This document shows, one piece after another, positions 13,281 through 48,229 of a stretch of 64,000 bases of DNA (within the stretch, counting starts at the first letter, position 1; each line of letters opens with the position of its first letter). Source of the DNA: Desulfobulbaceae bacterium DB1 (GTDB taxonomy: Bacteria; Desulfobacterota; Desulfobulbia; Desulfobulbales; SURF-16); assembly GCA_001914235.1 (NCBI GenBank), contig MQUF01000006.1:203234-267233 (forward strand). The letters are read 5' to 3'. Under the pieces are notes generated by a model. The model was not told the origin of the DNA. It saw only the letters and a list, made by a program, of their open reading frames with translations, and searched no databases. The position numbers and the translations under genes were made by a program.

Positions 13281-14822
13281 TCAGCGGGTATTCGGCCTTA
13301 CGAGATGTTTTCCGTCATCCTGAAGAATCAGTTCGGAAAATTTTATCGCCAATCGTTGCAGCTCGGGGATCGAAAGGTTGTCAATCCCTTCCATGCGGAC
13401 GGTTGTGGTGCGGCCGCGATTGTCTAGCGGCATCCATCTGGAGAAAAAACGGTCATTAACAGCCCCGGCAAAGCAGATGACCGATCTGGTTTGCCGGGCG
13501 GTGGCGAGGTGCTGGCAGCAGGAATCATAGCCGAAAAAAACATCGGCCTGATCGATAAGCGCCGAAAGCATGCCGATGCCGCCCTGCACGCAGACAAGGC
13601 CCTGTTTGAAATACGGTTTTTCTTGGTTGAAATCTTTTTCCGATATGTGCGCGGTCGCAAATCCCCTGCCGCTTATTTTGTCGACAAGTTTTATCGCCCT
13701 TTTTCTTTCATCCGGGTGACAACCGCTGTCAAGCACGACCATGGCCCCGGCATGCTGAAGCAGGCTGGACAGCAGTTCTTCCTCGAAAGGGTCGGGCAGT
13801 CGTTTGCGAGGATCATTGCCTACCCCGAGATTGACGGCGATTTTTTTGCTTTCTTTCGGAAAGCGGGTGAAAAAGTTGCGCACGGTCTGCTGGTGCACGG
13901 GGCGAATGGAGATGCAGGGCGCGATATCTTTTTTTTCATCCAGCAGACGGTTCAGCCAGACATTGGTCAGACTGCTGAGGCGGTGTGAGCTGTGCTGCTC
14001 CATTTCCCGTGAAGGAAAATAGCAGTAAGACCGGTCATCGATCAAGGGAAACAGGCCGAGTTGACTGAGTCGGCTGTCGGGATCGAAAAGAAGGGTGTTT
14101 TCCACCGAAGCTGCCTGCCATTCCTGTTCAAGCAAACGGTAAAGCGAGGTGAAGTAGGTCATTCGGCCGACAAGACCGCCTTCACGGTGATAATGCACCT
14201 TGGTCCAATGGACGCGGGGAAGTTCGGAAAAAATCTCGGCAAGATGCTGAGGGCCGAAAACAATCAGTTCAGCCTGGGGAAAAGTAACGAGAAGCCGATG
14301 AACAATGATGGAGGTCATGGCAACATCGGCGCCCACGGTGACCCGGGACAGCACAAGGATCTTGCGGATGTTGCGGCGCATGGAGCCGGAGAGCGCGCGT
14401 TCTTTTTTGATCCGGCGATAACGGGAGAATAACTGGTGCTCGTCGTGAAAGTGCAGATCGCCGAGCAGTTTGTCGAGAGCCCCGCCTTCAGTCCGGGTGC
14501 GGAGAAATGCCGTCATTCGCAGCAGGACCCGGCTGCAGATGTCGACACCGTCAGCGCTGAAATCATCGCACAACGGTTCGATAATATTTTTATAAAGGGC
14601 GACAACGGCAGCTTTTCGTGTCTGTTCGTTGTCCCTGGAAAGAGCCATGCGGCAAAGATGATCAACAACATCAAGATCCGGCGGCAGCTTGTTTGCGACC
14701 TGCGCCATGAACGATCGGCTCAAGTGATCGGCAATTGATTCAGGAGCGGAATGTTGCCTGACGGAAGTGTTTGCCGGTTGCGCCATGATGAGTTTATGTC
14801 CCTTTTTTGGGCCTGAAAACAT
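13281..14822 (-). CDS. Glycosyltransferase family 9 (heptosyltransferase)-like protein with a ~150-aa N-terminal extension
   Basis: The core ILVLSRVTVGADVAMTSI...IAVNLGVG....KR.P...GIGMLSALIDQADVFFGYDSCCQHLA resembles the GT9 fold. It lies next to the heptose kinase gene. Confidence 0.55.
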   Translation of the reverse strand: MFSGPKKGHKLIMAQPANTSVRQHSAPESIADHLSRSFMAQVANKLPPDLDVVDHLCRMALSRDNEQTRKAAVVALYKNIIEPLCDDFSADGVDICSRVLLRMTAFLRTRTEGGALDKLLGDLHFHDEHQLFSRYRRIKKERALSGSMRRNIRKILVLSRVTVGADVAMTSIIVHRLLVTFPQAELIVFGPQHLAEIFSELPRVHWTKVHYHREGGLVGRMTYFTSLYRLLEQEWQAASVENTLLFDPDSRLSQLGLFPLIDDRSYCYFPSREMEQHSSHRLSSLTNVWLNRLLDEKKDIAPCISIRPVHQQTVRNFFTRFPKESKKIAVNLGVGNDPRKRLPDPFEEELLSSLLQHAGAMVVLDSGCHPDERKRAIKLVDKISGRGFATAHISEKDFNQEKPYFKQGLVCVQGGIGMLSALIDQADVFFGYDSCCQHLATARQTRSVICFAGAVNDRFFSRWMPLDNRGRTTTVRMEGIDNLSIPELQRLAIKFSELILQDDGKHLVRPNTR

Positions 14823-14887: not shown

Positions 14888-15349
14888 TTAATGTTGCCGG
14901 CATGCGTAAAGGAGGGTGGGGCGGGTGAAATGACGGAGGGATCCGGGGAAAAAGAAAAGGGGGATAGCGATCAGCAGGTTGCGCAGGATAAGCAGGTAAA
15001 CCGGGCTTGTATTGCCGGTTCCGAAACAGCCGCAGTCGATGGGCAATTGCAGGTAGCCGCCGGAAACAAAAAGAAGAAGCAGGGTGAAGGCGAGATAAAG
15101 ACCGGCGATCATCCTGGCGAAAATTCCTGCCTTGATACCGATGAGGGCCAGAACGCCGAGAAGGATTTCCAGGGGAGGGTACCAGCGGGCAAGAAACAGT
15201 ATCTGATCAAGGGTGAGAATGTGCCGTTCCAGAAGGGATTCAAGCACATCTCCGACACCGGCGTCCCGTATCTTGACAAGTCCTGCCCAGACAAGAAGAG
15301 CCGACGCCAGATAGTAGTCAGTCACCACCAGGAAGCGGATCACCTTCAT
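14888..15349 (-). CDS. MauE/DoxX-type redox-associated membrane protein
   Basis: Four hydrophobic segments and the CGCFG motif (IDCGCFGTG). The start overlaps the upstream MCP stop (ATGA). Confidence 0.7.
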
Positions 15350-16785
15350 GACGGGTCGACAGGAGAATCGCCTTTGCCGGTTCCTTCCCAGAACTGCATC
15401 AATTTGTACATCATCTGATGCAATCTCTCCACCTGTTCCTTCACGTCCTGAACAGTAGCCGAGGCTTCTTCCGACATGGCAGCCTGGGATTGTACCATGC
15501 CGTCAATGCTGTTGACCGATTCGCGGATTTTTCCTTCGGTTTCCGACTGTCGTTTGCCGGTCTCCATGATTTTTTCCATCTGGCGGACAACCGAATCCGA
15601 GGCCGTGTTGACTTCGGCAAAGGTTGTTTTCAGGTTGTTCACCATATCGACGCCGGCGGTTACTTTTGTGTCGAGTCGTTTGATAATGGCGGCAACCATG
15701 CTTGATGTTTCCGCCGTCCGGGTGGCAAGGTTTCTCACTTCAGTGGCGACAACGGCAAATCCCGCCCCTGCTTCACCGGCGCGCGCCGCCTCGACCGCGG
15801 CATTTAAAGCCAGAAGATTTGTTTGAAAAGCAATATCTTCTATGACTTTGACCAGGGAAGAAATTTCCTTGTCCGCTTCCACCATCTCCTTCATGGCACC
15901 GACCACATCATTGATGGAACTGTTGGAATGAGTTGCCGTGCGATAGAGGTCGTTTGCCGCGTTTTCAGCGGTACGGGCGGCTTGCAGATTCTCTTCGGCC
16001 TGTGCCGTCATCTGCTCCATGGTCGATGCGATGCTGTCCAGGGAGGCCGAGGATGAGCTGGTCTCGGTTGCCAATTGAACGGACATGGCGTTGATGTTGT
16101 CAATGGCGTCGAGCAGCCCATGGGTTGCGTTGGTTGATTCCTGGCCCATCCAGTCGAGCTGGCGGGAAATGAGGGAAATCATGTAAAAGATGATTGCGCC
16201 GATCACGACCAGCAGTCCAATGGAGACAAGCAGCATTTTGTTGAGTTGCCTGCTGACGTCAAGGACATGGGCCATGGCCTCGTTATGACTGGCGGAGCTG
16301 TTTGCGACGATTTCGGCAAGGGACTGGAGGAGACTTTTGTTTTCTTTGTCGAAGGCGGCGGTCCATGTCGATTCTTCCCCGTATTGCTGATTAACGCTGG
16401 CGGAAACCATTTTCAGCCCTGCCTGATACGATGCCTGATAGGTTTTTTGCAGAGCGCCAATCTGCTTTGTTGCCTCGGGTACGGATTGGTTCAGTTGAGC
16501 GAGTGCTGCAAACTGATCAAGAATCTGTTTGTTGATGGTTTCCATGCCGGCAAGTTCGCTTTCCGTTCCCGCTGCCCGCGACACATTGAATTTTTCTATG
16601 ATATTGGTGACGCGGCCTTTTAATTCAATGGCGATTTTGGTTTCCGGATACACCTGCCCGCTCACCTTGCGAACTTCGAGGGTAAATTGTTTCGTCGCCA
16701 TCAGGGCGTAGGAAATAATAGCGCCGGAAAGGAGAAAGAGGAGAAGAAAAAAGAAATACAGTCTTCTTTTGCCGCCGAATTTCAT
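15346..16785 (-). CDS. Methyl-accepting chemotaxis protein
   Basis: Two TM segments flank a ~170-aa periplasmic region. The conserved signalling hairpin is [37 protein letters not shown]. Confidence 0.9.
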
Positions 16786-16904
16786 AAAAAATCTCTCGAA
16801 AAAGTCTGAACTGTTGGAAATAAAACAGCATCACAAAAACAGGAAAAGGAGATGACGTCTGGCCGCATCTCCTTTTTTCGCCAAAATCACAAACGTAAAA
16901 GCAT

Positions 16905-17627
16905 CTATTCAACCGGCAGTCCGGCCCGTTTCCATGCCAGTACGCCGCCATCCATGACGGCAAGATCAGTGTAACCGTTCATGTGCAGGAATTTGCCGCA
17001 GACGCCGACTTGTTTTCCGGCATGGTCAATGATAACTATTTTTTTGTCTTTGGGCAGGGTTGTGTATTTCTCATCCAGGTCATCAAGGGGGATATTGACG
17101 GCGCCTTTGATTTTGCCCACCTCAATAACCTCTTCACCGCGGATGTCGAGCATGACGATACCGCCGGCCTGGGCCTGAACATCGGCAGGGTTCAAGCGGG
17201 GAAGGTCGACATTGGGATATTTGACTTTGTTTTCAATGGGATACCCTTTTTTTGCCCAGGCGGGAAGCCCTTCGTTGTAGACCATGACATTGGTGTATCC
17301 CAGGGCAGTTGCCGCGTCCGCCGCTTTCTTGCTTTTGGTGCATTTGGGGCCCTTGCAGTAGAAAATGAGCAGTGATGCCTTGTCAGCCGGGAGCAATGGG
17401 TTGCCGGCAACCTTGCTGCTGGGGATATTGATGGAGCCGGCAATTGCCATTTCGTTATGTTCGATGGAGCTCAACGCATCAATTAAGGTGAGAGGTTCTC
17501 CTGCATCAATTTTCTTTTTCAGGTCGTCGGTGGTTATCAGAGAATCCGCCGCAAGGACCGTTGACTGAATGAAAAAAAGACAAAGCGTCAATAATGACAG
17601 AATACGGCAAAGACCAACTTTTTTCAT
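16905..17627 (-). CDS. Secreted tandem-rhodanese protein (CxGPxC active-site loop)
   Basis: ATG 17627 has an AGGAGG SD. Signal peptide MKKVGLCRILSLLTLCLFFIQSTVLAADS. Rhodanese domain 1 contains LIFYCKGPKCTKS; domain 2 follows. Confidence 0.85.
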   Translation of the reverse strand: MKKVGLCRILSLLTLCLFFIQSTVLAADSLITTDDLKKKIDAGEPLTLIDALSSIEHNEMAIAGSINIPSSKVAGNPLLPADKASLLIFYCKGPKCTKSKKAADAATALGYTNVMVYNEGLPAWAKKGYPIENKVKYPNVDLPRLNPADVQAQAGGIVMLDIRGEEVIEVGKIKGAVNIPLDDLDEKYTTLPKDKKIVIIDHAGKQVGVCGKFLHMNGYTDLAVMDGGVLAWKRAGLPVE

Positions 17628-17990
17628 GAAATCATCCTCCTGGTTTAATTTTTTTGATCCGCGCACAACACGCACTGTTCTTTTTTTGATGGAAAAAATC
17701 AGTGCCGCAAGTTGATTCCGTTGCAAGCTTATGCCATTATAAGGGGGAAAAAAAAATAAAATCAAAGGAAAAATTCAGGATAGAGGCAAGAGGAACATTT
17801 TGGCAATGCAAACATTTTCTCCATGACTTTTTCGATTTTGTTCGGCGTCGATTGCTCTCGTCAATTTCGGTTTGAGTTAAATTTTTGACTGTGATACCAT
17901 TTAAAAAATATTTTTTCGTAATATTAGCCGGATGCACAATGTGGTATTTGCCTTCCGGTTGAAAATCACAAATCCATTCGGAGGTTGTCT

Positions 17991-19307
17991 ATGCAGAAAA
18001 CGTTTTTGCGGAAATTTGTGCCGGTGATGATTTTTTTCTCATTGCTGGTTGGCTGTGCAACAACGGGCAGCGAAAAACAAGGCGGCAAGGCCGCTCAGGT
18101 CACCAGCGCCCAGACCGAGCAGAATGTCTATAAAGGCGAGGTGACGGGAAAGTCCAATAAGGCGAAAACAATATCCATCAAGGTCGGCAAGGATGCGGAA
18201 GCCAAAACCATGATGGTCAAGTTTAACGACCAGACCACGGGTCTTGAATTCGCCGAACAAGGTCAGGCCGCCATTGTCGCGTATAAGGTTGTCGGGAAGG
18301 ATAAGATAGCGACGGTCATCAAACCGAAACTGGCCCAACTGCCCAAGGGAACCTCCGAGGTCAAGACCGACTATGTTGCCGCCCTTATTGCCAAAGGCGG
18401 GAATTATCAGCTGATCGACTCTCGTCCGGCCGGTCGTTTTCACGCCGGCAGTTTGCCTTCCGCGGTCAGTATTCCTGTTGACAAGATCAAGAAGGAGGGT
18501 GCCTCCCTTCTGCCCAAAGATAAAAATACCGAGCTGATTTTCTTCTGCGGAGGCCCCACGTGAGGCATGAGCACCGAGTCCGCCGGTCTGGCGGCTGAAG
18601 CAGGGTACAAAAATGTAAAGGTATTTCTTGACGGCGCACCGGGATGGCAGAAGGCCGGTCATCATGTGGTTGCCAGCAATAATTTTGTCGAGAAAGGCAA
18701 TATCGTGCTGGTTGATCTGCGCGATGCGGCTGATTACAAAAAAGGTCATATTCCCCGCGCCTATAATGTCCCCTTTGCCGATCTTGAAGGTGCGGAGGAT
18801 GATTTCCCGGAAAACAAAACGGCCCCCCTTGTTTTTTACGGCAACAACGCGGTGAAGGCCTTTAAAACGGCAAAGAAGTGGGGATATAAAGGCTCGGCGG
18901 TGTATGAAGGAGGAACCAAGGCATGGACCGCGGCCGGCAAATCCCTGGATACATCCGCCTCTCCCAAAGAGATCACCTGGGTGAGAATTCTTGGGCCGGG
19001 TGAAATCGGGATTGCCGATTTTGTGAAAGTCGCGGGAAAACAACCTGCGGACAAGATTATCCTTGATGTGCGGACAAATGACGAGATCAAGGAAGGCATG
19101 TTTGCAAACGCCGTTCACATCCCCCTTGATGAGCTGGGCGCCAAAATGAACACCCTGCCCAAGAACAAGGAGATACTCATCCACTGCTCCACCGGGGCCC
19201 GGGCGGAAATGGCCTTTCAGGAGTTGAAAAAGGCAGGTTTCAAGACCCGGTATGTCATGGGAAATGTGGAATGCGATCCGGATGACGGGTGTGAAATTTC
19301 GGAATAA
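17991..19307 (+). CDS. Lipoprotein with three rhodanese-like domains, read through an in-frame UGA (probable selenocysteine at 18561-18563)
   Basis: Track ORFs 17985..18563 and 18567..19307 share one frame, separated only by TGA+GGC. The break splits a rhodanese domain (LIFFCGGPT-UGA-GMSTESAGLAAEAGYKNVKVFLDGAPGWQKAG). The paralog at 16905..17627 has Cys at the aligned position. Lipobox LLVGC. The third domain has HCSTGARA. Confidence 0.65.
18577..18596 (+). promoter_or_regulatory. Candidate bacterial SECIS hairpin
   Basis: AG(U)CCGCC-GGUCU-GGCGGCU starts 14 nt after the UGA. The 5' bulged U and GGUC-type apical loop resemble the upper part of the E. coli fdhF SECIS. Confidence 0.5.
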
Positions 19308-19343
19308 TTGACACGGAAGTTTCAACTTGTATTGATAAAAAAA

Positions 19344-19370
19344 GGCGATGCTGCCGCATCGCCTTTTTTT
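19344..19370 (+). terminator. Rho-independent terminator (A-run/T-run flanked, possibly bidirectional)
   Basis: GGCGATGC(19344-19351) pairs with GCATCGCC(19356-19363) across a TGCC loop, followed by T7. Confidence 0.75.
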
Positions 19371-19530
19371 ATGCGTCCTGTTCGGGTGTTTTTAATCGGA
19401 ACAGAGGAATGCGCTGCCGTGGTAAAAAAAACTTTCTTTCTGCGTTTCTCACCTCTATAATTTGTTTGCGGTATCAGCCGGTTGCCTGATGTGCTTTTCA
19501 ACCAAATTTAAAAAGGGAGAAAGTGGCGCG

Positions 19531-21303
19531 ATGATTGTTCCCAACATAAAAACAAAAATGGTTGTCATGATCTGCATTTCCCTGCTGGGGCTCTTTATTG
19601 TCTTTTTGAACGCCAATAAAGCACTGAATGCAAACATCGAAATCAGTGCACGGGTCAAGAGTGAAAAATTTGTTATGGCCATGGATATAGAAAAACTCGG
19701 TGCCCAGTCCCGCAAGTTGTCAAATGATGTCGAAATCAGCGCCACCACGGAATCTCTTGACAGTCTGGAAACGGCAAAACAGGACAAAACCGTTCTTCAG
19801 AAACAGATTGATGATATTGTTGCGGTATCAAAAAATGAGGAAGTGAAAAACACCCTTAATGAAATGAAGAAACTGACTGATCAGGTTCTTGACGCCGGCA
19901 GGCGATGGGTTGAATTTTCCTTTGCGCAGAAGTATGCCGAATCATTTGCCGCGGAGGAAGAATTCAAGGCTCTGAAAAAAGAATATTTTACCCTGATAAG
20001 CTCTTTGCAGCAGATGGCCCGTTCCGATCTGGAGCAATCGCTGGATCAGATTCATTCGCTTTCCAAACAAAGTATTCGTATCAATCTCGTTATCTTTGCT
20101 GTCTCCGTGCCGATTGTCCTTTTTTTGTCGATCGTCACTGTTTTTTCCATTATCCGGCCATTGGCGAAAACTGTGGAGTTCGCCGAAAGGGTGGCGGAAG
20201 GAGATGTTTCCCACCAGCTTGATATCACGTCAAAGGACGAACTGGGCAGCATGAGCAGGGCCTTGAATGACATGGTGCGCAGCCTTGCCCAGAAAAGCGA
20301 GGTGGCTGAGTCCATCGCCCAGGGAGATCTGTGTTGCAATGTCCCGATAGCTTCCGAGCGCGACACGCTTGGCCATTCGTTGCAGAAAATGGTGGAAAAT
20401 CTTGCCGCGATGATTAAAAACGTGCAGAAAAATGCCATCCATCTTTCCACCGCCTCTGATTCCATGTCCGGTTTGTCGATGCATCTTGCCGCAGGGGCGG
20501 AAGAGATGAGTGCACAAACGAAAGATGCGACAAATTGTATCAACGATATCAATGTCCATGCTCGCAATGTCACCACCACTGCCCGGAAAATGTCCGAAAA
20601 TATGGCAATCATCGCCGAGACCACCGAGCGGATGTCGGCTGCCATCGTCCGGATAGGAGGCAATGCAAAGGATGGCGCCGAGATAACCGAGACGGCGTTG
20701 ACCATGTCCGATAAGGCGACGAAAACAATCCTCTCCCTGCACGATACGGCCATTGAAATCGGCAAGGTGACCACGGCCATTAATGAAATTACCGAGCAGA
20801 CCAAGCTTCTCGCCTTAAACGCCACCATCGAGGCCGCCCGGGCCGGCGATGCCGGCAAGGGCTTTGCCGTGGTTGCCGGAGAGGTCAAGGAGTTGGCCAA
20901 GCAGAGCGCGGCGGCGGCGGAAAATATAGCAGCACTCATCGGCCAGGTGCAGAACAACACCGGCGAGGCGGTGCATGTCATCGGCGATGTGGCGGAGACC
21001 ATTAAGAAGGTTAATCTCTCTTCTCTCCAGATCAATCAGGCGGTGGAAGAGCAGATTCGGGAGGCACAGGGCATGGCGGCCGGTGTGGCGGATGTCAATG
21101 AAGGGGCAAACAACATTGCCTCCGCCATCAGTGAGCTTGCCGGGAATGCCAACGATACCACGGCCAATATCAATGAGGTCAAGGCTGTTGTCGACAGCAG
21201 CACGGAAGGAATTCATAAAATTTCCGATGCCGCCGCGGAACTGGCGGAACTGGCCGGAAGACTTGAAGGGCTTGTCGGGGAATTTCACCTGGAGAAGGCA
21301 TGA
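19531..21303 (+). CDS. Methyl-accepting chemotaxis protein with HAMP domain
   Basis: ATG 19531 has a GGGAGA SD (the track start 19462 is too long). TM, ~170-aa periplasmic region, TM, HAMP ([19 protein letters not shown]), then [35 protein letters not shown]. Confidence 0.9.
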
Positions 21304-21563
21304 TGCAGGAAATTCATATTACCGTTGATGGGATTGCGCTTGATTTTGAGACGGCAAAGAACATCGCGCTGGCCGTTGCGGAAAAAGAGGGTGATGAACC
21401 CATGCTGATTTCCTGGAATGACAGGGCACGCGATAAACATTCCCCCAGTTGCGTGAAATGCGAATTGCATGGCGCCCCGGGCTGGGAGGTTTATGGCCGC
21501 AACCATGGCGGCCGGGTGAGGATCAGTGTCAATAAGGATGATTATGTCTTTATTTACAGTTGA
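21300..21563 (+). CDS. Small hypothetical protein (87 aa) translationally coupled to the MCP
   Basis: The start overlaps the MCP stop (ATGA). Sequence: [20 protein letters not shown]...[20 protein letters not shown]. No family was assigned with confidence. Confidence 0.5.
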
Positions 21564-21593: not shown

Positions 21594-23522
21594 TCACCAA
21601 CCTTTTTTGTTGTTGCTGCGGATTTCCGACTTCATTGCCCTTTCCCTGATTGCCGCTTCCCTGATTTTGTTGCTGAAAACGATACGTTTGGCCGCCCAAT
21701 CAAGTTCCTCGAATTTTTTTTCCCCCGCCGTGCCTGTTGCCCGGATTTTGTACGTCCAACAGCCGTCCTCCTCTTGAAAGACCCGGCTTACCTCACCCTC
21801 GTGCAAACCGGCGAGCTCCCTGTCTTTTTCCTGGTTCATATCAAGATACCTGCGCGGCAGCAGGGATTGGAATTGCCTTGAACCGGCCTGGGAGAATTTT
21901 TTTGATATTAGGTCCATATTGCCGTCGGTAAGCATCAATTCCCGCGCCTCACGGCAGAGGTTTTCCTGGGCCTGTTTTTTTTCTGCGGAGTCGTAAGGAT
22001 GGATGTAGCGGAAGATGCCGTGCAGATCAAGCCGGAAGGGCGACATGACCGTATTTTGTTCGAGTTCCTTGAGTGCTGGGGGAATAATGGTTCGGCAGCT
22101 TTGATGAAAATCCTCAATCCTGGCTGAAATCCGCAGGTCGACTGCCTTATTCATTTCATTTTTTTTCACCCCGCGTATTTTTTGCAGGTTTCGAATGATA
22201 TGTTCCGTTGTCATGGTTTGTTGCGCGGCTTTTGATGTTGTCGCGCCGCAGCCGTTGTGGCGAGGAAAAACCATCTTTTTTCTATATGCGGCGGATTTGT
22301 CGTCTTGCCGCAGTAAATGGCCGAGACTGAAAAACGATATGCCGTCAAGTCCCAGCTCGGATATGTTCTCGGTTTCCCGAGCGATTTCTTCCGGAGATTT
22401 GATGTAGGCGCCGAGTCCGGCCCAGATGCGAACCGGGGTTGCGCCGCTTCTGTCCACAACATTTTCAAGTTGTCTCTTTACCCGTTCGGCGCCGCCGAAA
22501 TAGGCCATCGGCATGATTTCATCAACAATCCCCTCCTGCGCCCAGGTCAACCAGTCCTGGCCTTTGTCGAGATAGGCGGGAATCAGGTCCGGGAAAACAG
22601 CAGCGGAAAGCAAGGGGGTATGCGGGGATTGCCGCAAGGTGTTTTTAACCCGGCGGACAAGTTTTGTGACTTCACCCGCCCGCAGGTCGGCCCAGAGAAG
22701 TGCCGCTGTGGTGAGGAGTTCATCACCTGCGCTCAGTTGCCCCCGATACCATTTTTCAACGTCGGCTTCGTTTATTTTTTCCGGCAGCAGCCGGGGATCA
22801 AAGCCGTACGCATTTGTGAATTCATCGGCAATTTCCCCAAGGCCGAAGAAGGAGCCGGGGTAGCGGACAAAATCGAGATGAATGCCGGCAACCGGATATT
22901 GCTGTACAAGTTCCGCCACAACGGCGACAAAATAATCGCGGAAGCGGCTGGAGGAAGGGTCGGCATAGATGCCTTCAATCCAGTGTTGACTTTGTTCCAG
23001 TTCGCTGTAATCGGAAACCGATTTGCCGTTTCTGTCGGCAAGGAGCCAACCGTGGTCGGCGAGGGCCGGATGTTTTTTGTTTTTGGGCGGGGCCTGGCCG
23101 GACCAGAGATAATAAACGTTCAGCCATGCCTGGATGCGCTGGTCAGGGCACTGCTGCATCATCGCGGCCAGTGGATCGAAATCAGGCGGCGTCTGACTCA
23201 GTTCTTCGGCACGCGGAACAAGATCGCTCCGGTAATAGGCATCAGCTCTTCCCCTCACCTGGACGAGCAGGGTGGTGTAACCGGAGGCATGGGCTTCGGC
23301 GCAGATCTGCTTTATTTCCGCCTGGCTGTCCATGTGCCGGCGGACGACCCAGGCGGCAAGGTTTTTTTGCGGCGCCGCCTGCGGGGCACTGACGAGGAAC
23401 AGGGGCAGCCCGACAAGACAGACGAGGATGACGCGGCATATTCGATACGCATTCTTGACCTGCATAAACGCAAATGTTACCTTGTTTCTTTTTTGCAAAA
23501 GACTCATTTGCCTCATTTCCAT
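21594..23522 (-). CDS. GHL10-type (YngK-like) glycoside-hydrolase-like lipoprotein/secreted protein with a C-terminal parvulin-like segment
   Basis: Motifs AAWVVRRHMDS....I...AHASGYTTLLVQVRGRADAYYRS, IQAWLNVYY and AGIHLDFVRYPG. The C-terminal ~120 aa loosely resemble a PpiC rotamase domain. Confidence 0.65.
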   Translation of the reverse strand: MEMRQMSLLQKRNKVTFAFMQVKNAYRICRVILVCLVGLPLFLVSAPQAAPQKNLAAWVVRRHMDSQAEIKQICAEAHASGYTTLLVQVRGRADAYYRSDLVPRAEELSQTPPDFDPLAAMMQQCPDQRIQAWLNVYYLWSGQAPPKNKKHPALADHGWLLADRNGKSVSDYSELEQSQHWIEGIYADPSSSRFRDYFVAVVAELVQQYPVAGIHLDFVRYPGSFFGLGEIADEFTNAYGFDPRLLPEKINEADVEKWYRGQLSAGDELLTTAALLWADLRAGEVTKLVRRVKNTLRQSPHTPLLSAAVFPDLIPAYLDKGQDWLTWAQEGIVDEIMPMAYFGGAERVKRQLENVVDRSGATPVRIWAGLGAYIKSPEEIARETENISELGLDGISFFSLGHLLRQDDKSAAYRKKMVFPRHNGCGATTSKAAQQTMTTEHIIRNLQKIRGVKKNEMNKAVDLRISARIEDFHQSCRTIIPPALKELEQNTVMSPFRLDLHGIFRYIHPYDSAEKKQAQENLCREARELMLTDGNMDLISKKFSQAGSRQFQSLLPRRYLDMNQEKDRELAGLHEGEVSRVFQEEDGCWTYKIRATGTAGEKKFEELDWAAKRIVFSNKIREAAIRERAMKSEIRSNNKKGW

Positions 23523-46555: not shown

Positions 46556-48229
46556 CCTGAATCCGTGAGGTATCCCGGATTCTCCCTAAAAATTGTGGGG
46601 CGCGAAAAAATTTCAACACCGCGACCGCCAGAAATTTATATATTGCCAGCATATTGCTGGTAAATTGGGACATCGTCCCCGTTGTTCTTTGAAAAATTGC
46701 TATATTTGCCTGTTTTTAGGCGTATTTTCCCGGCAGGGCCTGCTGTTCAGCCACTTTCCGGCAAATTTCTCTTCTGTTCTTGCATTAGCCAAAGGCAAGC
46801 CGGTTATAAACGGCCTGAAACGAGTCAAATGCGCAACAGTGGCGGCTGAACCGCAGCTTCAGTTTCCTGCCGGTCTCAATCAGTCTGGCTGCACGGTACA
46901 TGAGTTCCTGAATAACGGTACGAATTCTCCTGCGCTTTGCCGAGTGGCGCACTGGTGAGCGATCACCGAGAAGGCCAAGCTGGCCGATAAACCGCAAGAT
47001 GTTATAAGCCAAGCCGGCCAAGGACATGATCAAGGAATTGGTCGCAAATTTTCCCGAAGGCAACCGCTCAAGATCCATGTCGGTTTTAAATTCGCTGTGA
47101 AACTGCTCGCTTGTGCCGTGGTCCCGGTAGAGCTTGATGATCTCTTTTTCCGGCAGGTAAAGGGATGTCCACCAGCCCTCAAGTTCTATATCCGGCACCA
47201 GCAGCAACTGGCCGCGTTTGTCAATGGTACGTTCAATCACGCGGACGATCAGGCGGGTACTGAACTCCTTGCCCTCGTGCTCCTGAAGCTGGTTGAAACT
47301 GAATACGGCAACCCGTTTGCCGCGTCGTGGTTCGCTCACTTCTCCTTCTTGCAGCCCACGGGCCAGCCAGGCGGGAAGGTCCTGCTTGCGGGGATTCCAT
47401 TTCAGGATGTAATCGACCTTTTTGTGGCCATAAAGCGTTGCTCGGGTCTCGACAGCATCGTGTCCGGAGTCAAGCCTGAATAACAGTGACTTTTTGGTTA
47501 AAGACTTGGCACGGGAGATGGTTTCCTGCAGAAAAGGAATAAAATTGTTTTGGCTGTGCTGGCTGCCCTCCCGGAACTCAAGATTAATACACCAGCCTTC
47601 CTCTCCCATGTAGGCGGCTATTGGCGCATAGCCGTCATAACCGTGATAGGTATGCTTGGAACCTTCTTTTTTGGTGCCGGAGTTGTCCATGCAAAAGACG
47701 TCCATATCGACGGCGACATGACCCATGGCCAAGGGGGTTACTTTTCCTTTGGCATTGCGGATGAACTCCGTGTAGGTGGAGGAAGCAATTGGCTGAAAAA
47801 CTGTTGCGGTTTCGTCAAGGCGCTGGCGCAAGGTTTCGGGCGAAGGAACCGCTTTGATGCCAAGTGATTGCTGGAAATACCTGTCGTCTTTCATGTCGGC
47901 AATGGCTTCGAAATCGCTTTTGCCAAGCGAGAGGAGCCCGAGATAACTGCGAATGACATCTGTATTGGCAATGTCCTTGGTGTCGGGTATCGCCTTTTTC
48001 AGCTTGGCGTTCAAGCTGGTAAAGCGATTGATACCGAGCCCGATCAGGGCCAGGCCGGAATGAGAGGTATAAAATTCGTCCGATGAGCGTTCAAGAATAA
48101 ATCGTTTCATTTTTTCACCTGCAGAGTGATGTTTTTAGACAGGCGAATATTGCAATATTTTTTGTTAAATTTCAAAATGTTATTTGATTATACAGACGAT
48201 TTTTACTGCAAAAATTTCACGGATTCAGG
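46556..48229 (-). mobile_element. Complete IS1380-family insertion sequence (~1.67 kb)
   Basis: 13-bp perfect terminal inverted repeats: CCTGAATCCGTGA (46556-46568) and TCACGGATTCAGG (48217-48229). Abutting flanks are TTACA (46551-46555) and ATACA (48230-48234). It carries a single transposase ORF. Confidence 0.85.
46785..48110 (-). CDS. IS1380 family transposase
   Basis: 441 aa. MKRFILERSSDEFYTSHSGLALIGL...YHGYDGY matches the recalled IS1380-type architecture. Confidence 0.85.
   Translation of the reverse strand: MKRFILERSSDEFYTSHSGLALIGLGINRFTSLNAKLKKAIPDTKDIANTDVIRSYLGLLSLGKSDFEAIADMKDDRYFQQSLGIKAVPSPETLRQRLDETATVFQPIASSTYTEFIRNAKGKVTPLAMGHVAVDMDVFCMDNSGTKKEGSKHTYHGYDGYAPIAAYMGEEGWCINLEFREGSQHSQNNFIPFLQETISRAKSLTKKSLLFRLDSGHDAVETRATLYGHKKVDYILKWNPRKQDLPAWLARGLQEGEVSEPRRGKRVAVFSFNQLQEHEGKEFSTRLIVRVIERTIDKRGQLLLVPDIELEGWWTSLYLPEKEIIKLYRDHGTSEQFHSEFKTDMDLERLPSGKFATNSLIMSLAGLAYNILRFIGQLGLLGDRSPVRHSAKRRRIRTVIQELMYRAARLIETGRKLKLRFSRHCCAFDSFQAVYNRLAFG

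Follow-up and report, generated by a model that had tools for sequence, protein, structure and literature searches.

The genome of Desulfobulbaceae bacterium DB1 contains, within a 64,000-nucleotide (nt) stretch of contig MQUF01000006.1 (positions 203,234 to 267,233 of the forward strand; hereafter the window), six genes in two divergent arms, which were identified from a list of open reading frames (ORFs) and by profile searches. The minus strand encodes an exported tandem rhodanese (Rhd_L), a methyl-accepting chemotaxis protein (MCP_L; MCP, chemoreceptor) and a MauE-family membrane protein, and the plus strand encodes an exported rhodanese lipoprotein (Rhd_R), a second chemoreceptor (MCP_R) and a DUF5619 protein (Table 1). 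We put at about even the chances that each arm is a paralogous copy of one conserved module for extracytoplasmic sensing, in which an exported tandem rhodanese would provide the periplasmic input of a dedicated chemoreceptor. The six genes, their placement and the ATGA overlap in each arm, all described in a first-pass annotation of the sequence, were borne out; the periplasmic regions of the receptors, given there as ~170 amino acids (aa), were corrected to ~155 aa.

Comparative genomics indicates that the pairing of rhodanese and chemoreceptor genes extends well beyond this genome. A scan of species-representative genomes with an alignment of Rhd_L orthologues yielded 59 loci (L numbers below), the neighbours of which were annotated with the window's own proteins. 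An MCP gene is located immediately downstream of the rhodanese gene, on the same strand, in 34 of these 59 rhodanese-anchored loci: 28 pairs belong to Desulfobulbales and have an MCP_L orthologue downstream, and six are found outside this order, in Desulfarculaceae (L040), Anaeromyxobacter-like genomes (L044, L047, L048), Nannocystaceae (L049) and another member of Myxococcota (L051). Two more distant rhodanese homologues led to further pairs in Ca. Aureabacteria (L068, L069), where the two genes open a CheW-CheW-PilZ-PilJ-MCP cluster, and in L070. The distance between the two genes ranges from -4 to ~300 nt, and is short in several lineages: the genes overlap by ATGA in L044 and L047, are ~10-21 nt apart in Desulfurivibrionaceae and in L049 (10-21 nt in L020, L023-L025 and L045; ~10 nt in L049), and are 28 nt apart in L068 of Aureabacteria. 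Because the genes flanking the pair differ between lineages (NfeD-SPFH genes are upstream in Anaeromyxobacter) and also within Desulfobulbales (L061), the pairing, which recurs in at least three bacterial phyla, represents more than inherited synteny. In the searchable literature, no paper linking a rhodanese or MauE with a chemoreceptor was found, in keeping with the first-pass annotation, which had known of no such partnership.

The receptors that accompany these rhodaneses resemble one another in their sensory parts. Both window MCPs have two hydrophobic segments flanking a helical periplasmic domain of ~155 aa, i.e. a first transmembrane segment (TM1), the periplasmic domain and TM2; in MCP_R these are followed by a HAMP domain and the signalling domain, whereas MCP_L, which aligns gap-free to residues 279-509 of Escherichia coli Tar, passes directly from TM2 to the signalling domain, and no HAMP was detected in it or in four tested orthologues. 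BLASTP finds no similarity between the periplasmic domains of MCP_L and MCP_R, but hidden Markov models (HMMs) built from the orthologues of each match reciprocally (E 1e-9 to 1e-4), and such reciprocal matches link MCP_L, MCP_R and the receptors of L040, L047 and L044 over the full length of the domain. Compared by hhalign with an alignment of the family (A2), the receptors of L070, L068 (Aureabacteria) and L049 (Nannocystaceae) score 99.2%, 97.9% and 80%, respectively, and three other MCPs from the same loci, included as negative controls, score below 3%. Neither window MCP matches 4HB_MCP_1, CHASE3 or TarH at E<=0.01, and sub-threshold matches among members of the family are few (4 of 15 to 4HB_MCP_1 and 2 of 15 to CHASE3). 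No Pfam family covers the domain and no PDB sequence matches it, so that by either comparison it matches none of the characterised small-molecule sensor families. An AlphaFold2 (AF2) model of the MCP_L periplasmic domain, built from two sequences only and of moderate confidence (pLDDT 79), is a four-helix bundle, and its best Foldseek matches are four-helix-bundle sensor domains (Adeh_2942, MCP2201, PcaY and Vc1313; TM-score to target 0.65-0.81, E ~0.02). The orthologues of MCP_R are confined to the closest relatives of the window (L002-L005, L009 and L046), and a metagenome scan with the single MCP_R sequence gave one match, an irrelevant one to HAMP. To judge from these profiles, the partner receptors constitute one uncurated four-helix-bundle sensor family, found beside such rhodaneses in every locus examined. 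The periplasmic domains of both window MCPs are free of cysteine and the family has no conserved cysteine; a covalent sulfur relay onto the receptor was rejected for this reason. In the two Aureabacteria loci (L068:5767-7263 and L069:5754-7250) the receptor is split into two ORFs, one of 290 aa with HAMP and one of 168-183 aa with MCPsignal, which may be due to a frameshift, recoding, a pseudogene or a sequencing error.

The rhodaneses are distinguished by the active-site loop of their first rhodanese domain. Rhd_L, the start codon of which (ATG at 17627) is preceded by a GGAGGA ribosome-binding site and the signal peptide of which ends in ...TVLA/AD, contains in domain 1 the loop FYC-KGPK-C (C91-KGPK-C96), both cysteines of which are invariant in the alignment of Rhd_L orthologues (A1); its domain 2 has a conserved DHAGKQ motif in place of a catalytic cysteine. 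The AF2 model of Rhd_L (pLDDT 91.5) has a tandem rhodanese fold that resembles 6mxv in Foldseek. Rhd_R has a lipobox (LLVGC), an N-terminal domain of ~95 aa without assigned type, and three rhodanese domains, of which the first has the loop CGGPT-U (U, selenocysteine, Sec; see below), the second is inactive and the third has the loop CSTGAR. Both proteins belong to PF00581, have a cysteine opening the active-site loop and are putative sulfurtransferases. They fall far below the cutoffs of the NCBIfam selenoprotein families rhodanese_LYCAU (NF041203; 72.7 and 47.6 bits, cutoff 115) and TsoB (NF045694; 63.2 and 50.2 bits, cutoff 805). The first rhodanese domain presents an unusual redox-capable loop, C-x4-C in the left arm and C-x4-Sec in the right arm. 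Rhd_R and Rhd_L are 30% identical over domains 1 and 2 (E 1e-25). With this identity, and with sensor domains of the receptors that are related only by profile, the two arms are ancient paralogues and not the product of a recent mirrored duplication. Of the duplicated, mirrored functional unit that the first-pass annotation had envisaged, the rhodanese-MCP pairing is conserved, but the duplication is not recent and the triplet of the right arm is not a conserved unit.

The reading frame of Rhd_R continues past a TGA codon, which in a pairwise alignment coincides with the second cysteine of the CKGPKC loop of Rhd_L. Across the 59 related loci, TGA alternates with TGC or TGT at this loop column in both rhodanese families (21 distinct sequences with TGA, 48 with a cysteine codon), and does so among Anaeromyxobacter-like genomes, where L044 and L047 have TGA versus TGC in L048. 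The gene for the Rhd_R orthologue is split by the same TGA in 12 loci and has a cysteine codon in L027 and L050. A hairpin resembling a selenocysteine insertion sequence (SECIS) follows the TGA of Rhd_R; of the 21 distinct Sec-form sequences, nearly all retain a hairpin at the corresponding register, and the stem shows compensatory changes (CCGCC/GGCGG, CUGCC/GGCAG and CGGCC/GGCCG). This region is more stable in the Sec forms than in the Cys forms (Mann-Whitney p=0.003), the latter being heterogeneous. The 71-nt stretch around the UGA of Rhd_R has an unexceptional folding energy (z +0.88), and its SECIS element is a predicted one. The residues from the Sec codon onward read U-G-M-S, which fits a UxxS motif. 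Neither a tRNA-Sec gene nor any other tRNA gene is present in the window. The UGA of Rhd_R probably encodes selenocysteine, as had been suspected from the sequence at first reading, and the TGA/Cys alternation and the SECIS-like hairpin support that assignment. Alternation of Cys and Sec points to redox catalysis and not to selenium sensing; the sensing of selenium species, one of the functions put forward in the first-pass annotation, was rejected because the two residues exchange freely at this loop position. L027 has a third rhodanese-type gene (minus strand, near 16568) with an in-frame TGA at the same loop position (FYCNGFR-U-PKA), which may be another selenoprotein variant.

In the left arm of Desulfobulbales the receptor has a further constant companion. 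The start of the MauE gene overlaps the end of MCP_L by 4 nt (ATGA), and a MauE gene is next after the MCP_L orthologue in 24 of 25 informative Desulfobulbales loci (the exception is L022). MCP_L and MauE are gained or lost together: five loci that lack MCP_L (L028, L030, L032, L033 and L042) also lack MauE but retain the rhodanese, and MauE is absent from the rhodanese-MCP pairs outside Desulfobulbales (Myxococcota, Aureabacteria and L070); MauE therefore tracks the receptor, not the rhodanese. HAMP was undetected in every tested receptor that is partnered by MauE (window MCP_L; L010, L019, L024 and L026) and was present in every tested partner receptor without MauE (L047, L049, L051, L068 and L070). 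The DCGCFG motif, invariant in 23 MauE orthologues (alignment A4), lies within the TM3-TM4 loop, predicted by the positive-inside rule to face the periplasm. The clade is narrow: a full profile scan of 1.84 billion proteins gave no more than 15 representatives at E<1e-30, with no MauE-rhodanese fusion among its top matches, and a homologue search with MauE reached close orthologues only. One member of the clade, a 438-aa protein (P0153, L066:122-1438), consists of a four-TM MauE domain that keeps DCGCFG, fused to HisKA and HATPase domains; a gene fragment immediately upstream of it (L066:3-107) ends like the C-terminus of MCP_L (...LIQFWEG...). This fusion with its MCP_L-type neighbour is suggestive, and MauE may have a role in transmembrane signalling or in resetting a redox state.

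DUF5619, the corresponding small protein of the right arm, is a different case. Its gene also overlaps the end of the receptor gene by ATGA, and the first-pass annotation had listed both small proteins as redox-type partners. DUF5619 is cytoplasmic and has no known redox function despite a C-x2-C motif conserved among Desulfobulbales orthologues. Its only relative of solved structure (PDB 3c0f, AF_1514) is uncharacterised. The full Rhd_R-MCP_R-DUF5619 triplet occurs in four of the six MCP_R loci, DUF5619 directly follows Rhd_R in L008, L028, L030 and L033, and in several other loci it stands alone beside a gene for a CxxCxxCC protein. An MCP-specific partnership was rejected because DUF5619 follows Rhd_R directly or stands alone in other genomes, and DUF5619 is best described as a syntenic neighbour of Rhd_R, not a demonstrated part of the module.

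Each arm may be expressed as two transcription units or as an attenuated operon. The ATGA overlaps argue for coupling of MCP_L with MauE and of MCP_R with DUF5619, in partial agreement with the operons of the first-pass annotation, but each rhodanese gene is followed by a terminator-like hairpin, which makes co-transcription of rhodanese and receptor doubtful in this genome. The hairpin after Rhd_L has a folding free energy (dG) of -18.8 kcal/mol (z -3.1), and that after Rhd_R, which is succeeded by a TATAAT box near 19455, has a dG of -24.5 kcal/mol (z -6.8; 0 of 200 shuffled sequences fold as well). Hairpins like the left one are found in L002-L006, L014, L021 and L046 and are missing from loci with a gap of just 10-21 nt. 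The divergent intergenic region contains a minus-strand promoter match (TTGATT-18-TATAAT, 17765-17736) and a plus-strand one (TTGACT-16-AATATT, 17885-17912), both consensus matches only. A scan for sigma-54 promoters, prompted by the kinase and sigma-54 regulator context of relatives (below), found none in the intergenic regions, the total in the window being at chance level.

Chemoreceptors are not the only signalling proteins beside which this rhodanese family is found. In L027, L028, L030 and L050, the Rhd_L orthologue comes after same-strand genes for a PAS histidine kinase and a sigma-54 response regulator, and the Rhd_R orthologue is divergent, upstream of the PAS kinase. The kinase and regulator of these loci (e.g. 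L030:6234-10723) fill the place of the chemoreceptors between the divergent Rhd_R-type and Rhd_L-type genes. In L056 (2475-5650), the gene for a membrane GGDEF-EAL protein, the N-terminal region of which has no match to the receptor sensor family, overlaps the 3' end of the rhodanese gene. The rhodanese family has been recruited repeatedly beside three transducer classes, a pattern typical of accessory periplasmic sensor proteins.

In marine Desulfobulbaceae, the rhodanese, usually in its Sec form, is preceded by a multihaem cytochrome c (~665 aa), a cytochrome b and a small membrane protein, and in Sulfuricaulis these genes, together with a YeeE-like Sulf_transp gene, lie upstream of a three-domain homologue. 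Cytochrome-rhodanese gene sets are located at L034:4620-8755, L035:6773-10744, L036:2698-6818, L043:110-4206 and L071:958-6167. The set looks like an uncharacterised periplasmic sulfur redox module, and because of these cytochrome c, cytochrome b and YeeE-like contexts the family also has a receptor-independent role in sulfur or redox handling.

Table 1. Features of the two divergent arms, in window coordinates
Feature	Position	Strand	Basis or comment
MauE-family four-TM protein, 153 aa	14888..15349	-	PF07291, 51.9 bits (cutoff 27)
MCP_L chemoreceptor, 479 aa	15346..16785	-	MCPsignal (PF00015), 122.4 bits (cutoff 34.6)
Terminator-like hairpin between Rhd_L and MCP_L	16845..16876	-	A-tract, stem, U-tract
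Rhd_L, exported tandem rhodanese, 240 aa	16905..17627	-	PF00581, 96.8 bits, two stretches
Divergent intergenic region	17628..17990	.	Sigma-70-like promoter matches in both directions
Rhd_R, exported rhodanese lipoprotein, 438 aa including probable Sec	17991..19307	+	PF00581, 144.4 bits, three stretches
In-frame UGA in Rhd_R, probably read as Sec	18561..18563	+	Second-Cys position of the C-x4-C loop
SECIS-like hairpin CCGCC-GGUCU-GGCGG	18580..18594	+	Starts 19 nt past the U of the UGA
Strong intrinsic-terminator-like hairpin between Rhd_R and MCP_R	19335..19372	+	dG and shuffled sequences
MCP_R chemoreceptor, 590 aa	19531..21303	+	HAMP, 50.7 bits; MCPsignal, 105.6 bits (cutoff 34.6)
DUF5619 protein, 87 aa	21300..21563	+	PF18505, 106.1 bits (cutoff 25), full length

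Downstream of the left arm of the window is a gene (13281-14822, minus strand) the 513-aa product of which has no more than a weak match to GT9. In Desulfobulbales this GT9-like gene is conserved next to the module on its downstream side and is followed by a PfkB-family kinase gene; it is located directly 3' of the rhodanese gene in genomes without MCP_L and MauE. Beyond the right arm, a GHL10-family glycosyl-hydrolase-like gene (21594-23522, minus strand) lies between DUF5619 and the CxxCxxCC gene; it was undetected in related loci, where DUF5619 and the CxxCxxCC gene are closer together, and may be a local insertion. A stretch of lower GC content (~0.39-0.45) at ~36800-60000 is devoted to envelope-polysaccharide functions (an MsbA-like ABC transporter, an FkbM methyltransferase, an O-antigen ligase, a GT9 heptosyltransferase, a GT1 protein and a capsule-synthesis protein) and includes a DDE transposase at 46785-48110.

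If the rhodanese is the periplasmic input of its receptor, it would react in the periplasm with reactive sulfur species or an oxidant (for example polysulfide, thiosulfate or persulfide), and its loop would then switch between thiol, persulfide and disulfide or selenenylsulfide states. The cysteine-free receptor bundle would sense the state of the loop by protein-protein contact, by analogy with binding proteins and Tar or with TorT and TorS, and this readout would bias chemotaxis signalling. In the left-arm clade of Desulfobulbales, in which the receptor appears to have lost HAMP and MauE appears to be translationally coupled to it, MauE might reset the redox state of the rhodanese or serve as a membrane co-sensor. 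We propose tentatively, and with doubt outweighing confidence, that this is an undescribed kind of chemosensory input, with the C-x4-C/Sec rhodanese as a covalent-state (persulfide or disulfide) co-receptor docking on a dedicated family of four-helix-bundle receptors and MauE as an intramembrane signalling partner of the HAMP-less receptor in Desulfobulbales.

Indirect chemoreception via binding proteins is known from E. coli (Tar with the maltose-binding protein MBP, Trg with the ribose- and galactose-binding proteins RBP and GBP, and Tap with DppA), and TorT-TorS and LuxP-LuxQ also employ it. Like the Tar-MBP type of system, the module described here is proposed to have a soluble or lipid-anchored periplasmic protein that reports to a helical sensor domain, which is predicted to be a four-helix bundle as in Tar. 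Unlike binding-protein systems, it has as the partner an enzyme fold, a tandem rhodanese with a redox loop, instead of a solute-binding-protein fold; the gene of the partner adjoins that of the receptor; and the signal, through a contact that is itself proposed, would be a covalent or redox state instead of ligand occupancy. MauE functions in methylamine dehydrogenase maturation, and DoxX-SseA-SodA of Mycobacterium tuberculosis is a membrane oxidoreductase complex of which SseA is a rhodanese. As in these systems, the MauE of the left arm is a small multi-TM protein that would be tied to extracytoplasmic thiol chemistry, linked with a rhodanese in the mycobacterial case; unlike DoxX-SseA, it co-occurs with a chemoreceptor and not with the rhodanese, belongs to a narrow clade, and is once fused to a histidine kinase.

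Several characterised or listed rhodaneses resemble those of the module. TsoB is a rhodanese/DsbD fusion-like selenoprotein with a UxxxxU motif (PMC13188914); it likewise combines a rhodanese loop having two redox residues at x4 spacing with a membrane thiol-redox module, and domain 1 of both Rhd_L and Rhd_R matches its N-terminal region, but the membrane partner of the window rhodanese is a separate MauE-type protein and not a fused DsbD-like domain, and TsoB has no described chemoreceptor. ExtH of Geobacter is a 49-kDa rhodanese-like lipoprotein encoded in a cytochrome/porin cluster (PMC5877670); Rhd_R, also a multi-rhodanese-domain lipoprotein and of similar size, differs in being beside an MCP. 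A rhodanese-like selenoprotein 'form 1' with a UxxS motif, from Geobacter sulfurreducens, appears in a 2026 list of prokaryotic selenoproteomes (PMC13188914) and has its counterpart in the U-G-M-S context of Rhd_R. Rhd_R is likened to ExtH and to form 1 by description, and homology to either is a lead only.

Several observations weigh against the rhodanese being the input of the receptor. The support for coupling of the two is genomic association throughout. In the window and its closest relatives, terminator-like hairpins part each rhodanese gene from its MCP gene. The rhodanese is without any MCP in 20 of 59 loci, which implies an MCP-independent role, e.g. beside cytochromes. The weakest point is that every locus was reached through the rhodanese or MauE, so that the restriction of the sensor family is seen from that side only. 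Direct binding of small ligands is, moreover, usual for four-helix bundles. The MauE-kinase fusion was seen once, on a 1.6-kb contig of a metagenome-assembled genome (MAG). Much of the conservation within Desulfobulbales is shared synteny, in a block that also takes in the unrelated GT9-like, PfkB and CxxCxxCC genes.

The main alternative, possible though on balance doubtful, is that the rhodanese and the receptor share a physiological theme without any relay between them. The four-helix bundle of the MCP would itself bind a small sulfur or redox compound, which the rhodanese would only metabolise, detoxify or make, and the genes would be kept together by their service to a common response. 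The four-helix-bundle domains of PcaY, MCP2201 and Vc1313 bind small ligands directly, the rhodanese family works without an MCP beside cytochromes and a YeeE-like transporter, and the terminator-like hairpins permit separate expression in this genome. However, a sensor family that, in every case examined, occurs only in receptors next to a rhodanese shows greater specificity than a loose theme needs, as do genes that overlap or are spaced by 10-28 nt in several phyla; moreover, this explanation overlaps with that of the rhodanese as receptor input if the product of the rhodanese is the ligand.

A purely thiol-redox maintenance function, in which the rhodanese and MauE would form a periplasmic thiol-disulfide or sulfur-transfer system like MauE/MauD or DoxX/SseA and the MCP genes would be passengers at a permissive site, is improbable. 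Membership of the MauE family with an invariant DCGCFG, the C-x4-C/U redox loop, and the precedent of TsoB, in which a rhodanese that shares the x4 spacing is fused to a DsbD-like membrane module, are all in its favour, but MauE follows the MCP instead of the rhodanese in the five loci that lack MCP_L, and the rhodanese-MCP pairs of Myxococcota, Aureabacteria and L070 do without MauE. Chance adjacency or purely inherited synteny of functionally unlinked genes, to which the conserved Desulfobulbales block and the limitation of MCP_R to a few close relatives would conform, is most improbable of all, since the adjacency recurs in separate lineages with different flanks, tight spacing and a shared sensor family, and MCPs account for an estimated ~1% of genes or fewer, which makes repeated chance adjacency negligible.

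To our knowledge, sulfide, polysulfide and thiosulfate have no defined chemoreceptor. Positioning in gradients of sulfide and oxidants is, however, central to the ecology of Desulfobulbales, the order to which the cable bacteria belong, and to that of many other sediment bacteria. The conserved rhodanese-receptor pair supplies concrete candidates, with a defined partner, a defined sensor family and two redox residues as a biochemical handle. Even if the coupling is thematic only, an uncurated four-helix-bundle sensor family is recognised through the pair, which also adds to the rhodanese selenoproteins. If the rhodanese is indeed the periplasmic input of the receptor, indirect chemoreception would come to include a redox-enzyme fold besides solute-binding proteins, a signalling role would fall to one clade of the MauE family, which is poorly understood, and sulfur-cycling and other anaerobic bacteria would possess a direct sense of reactive sulfur or of periplasmic redox state.

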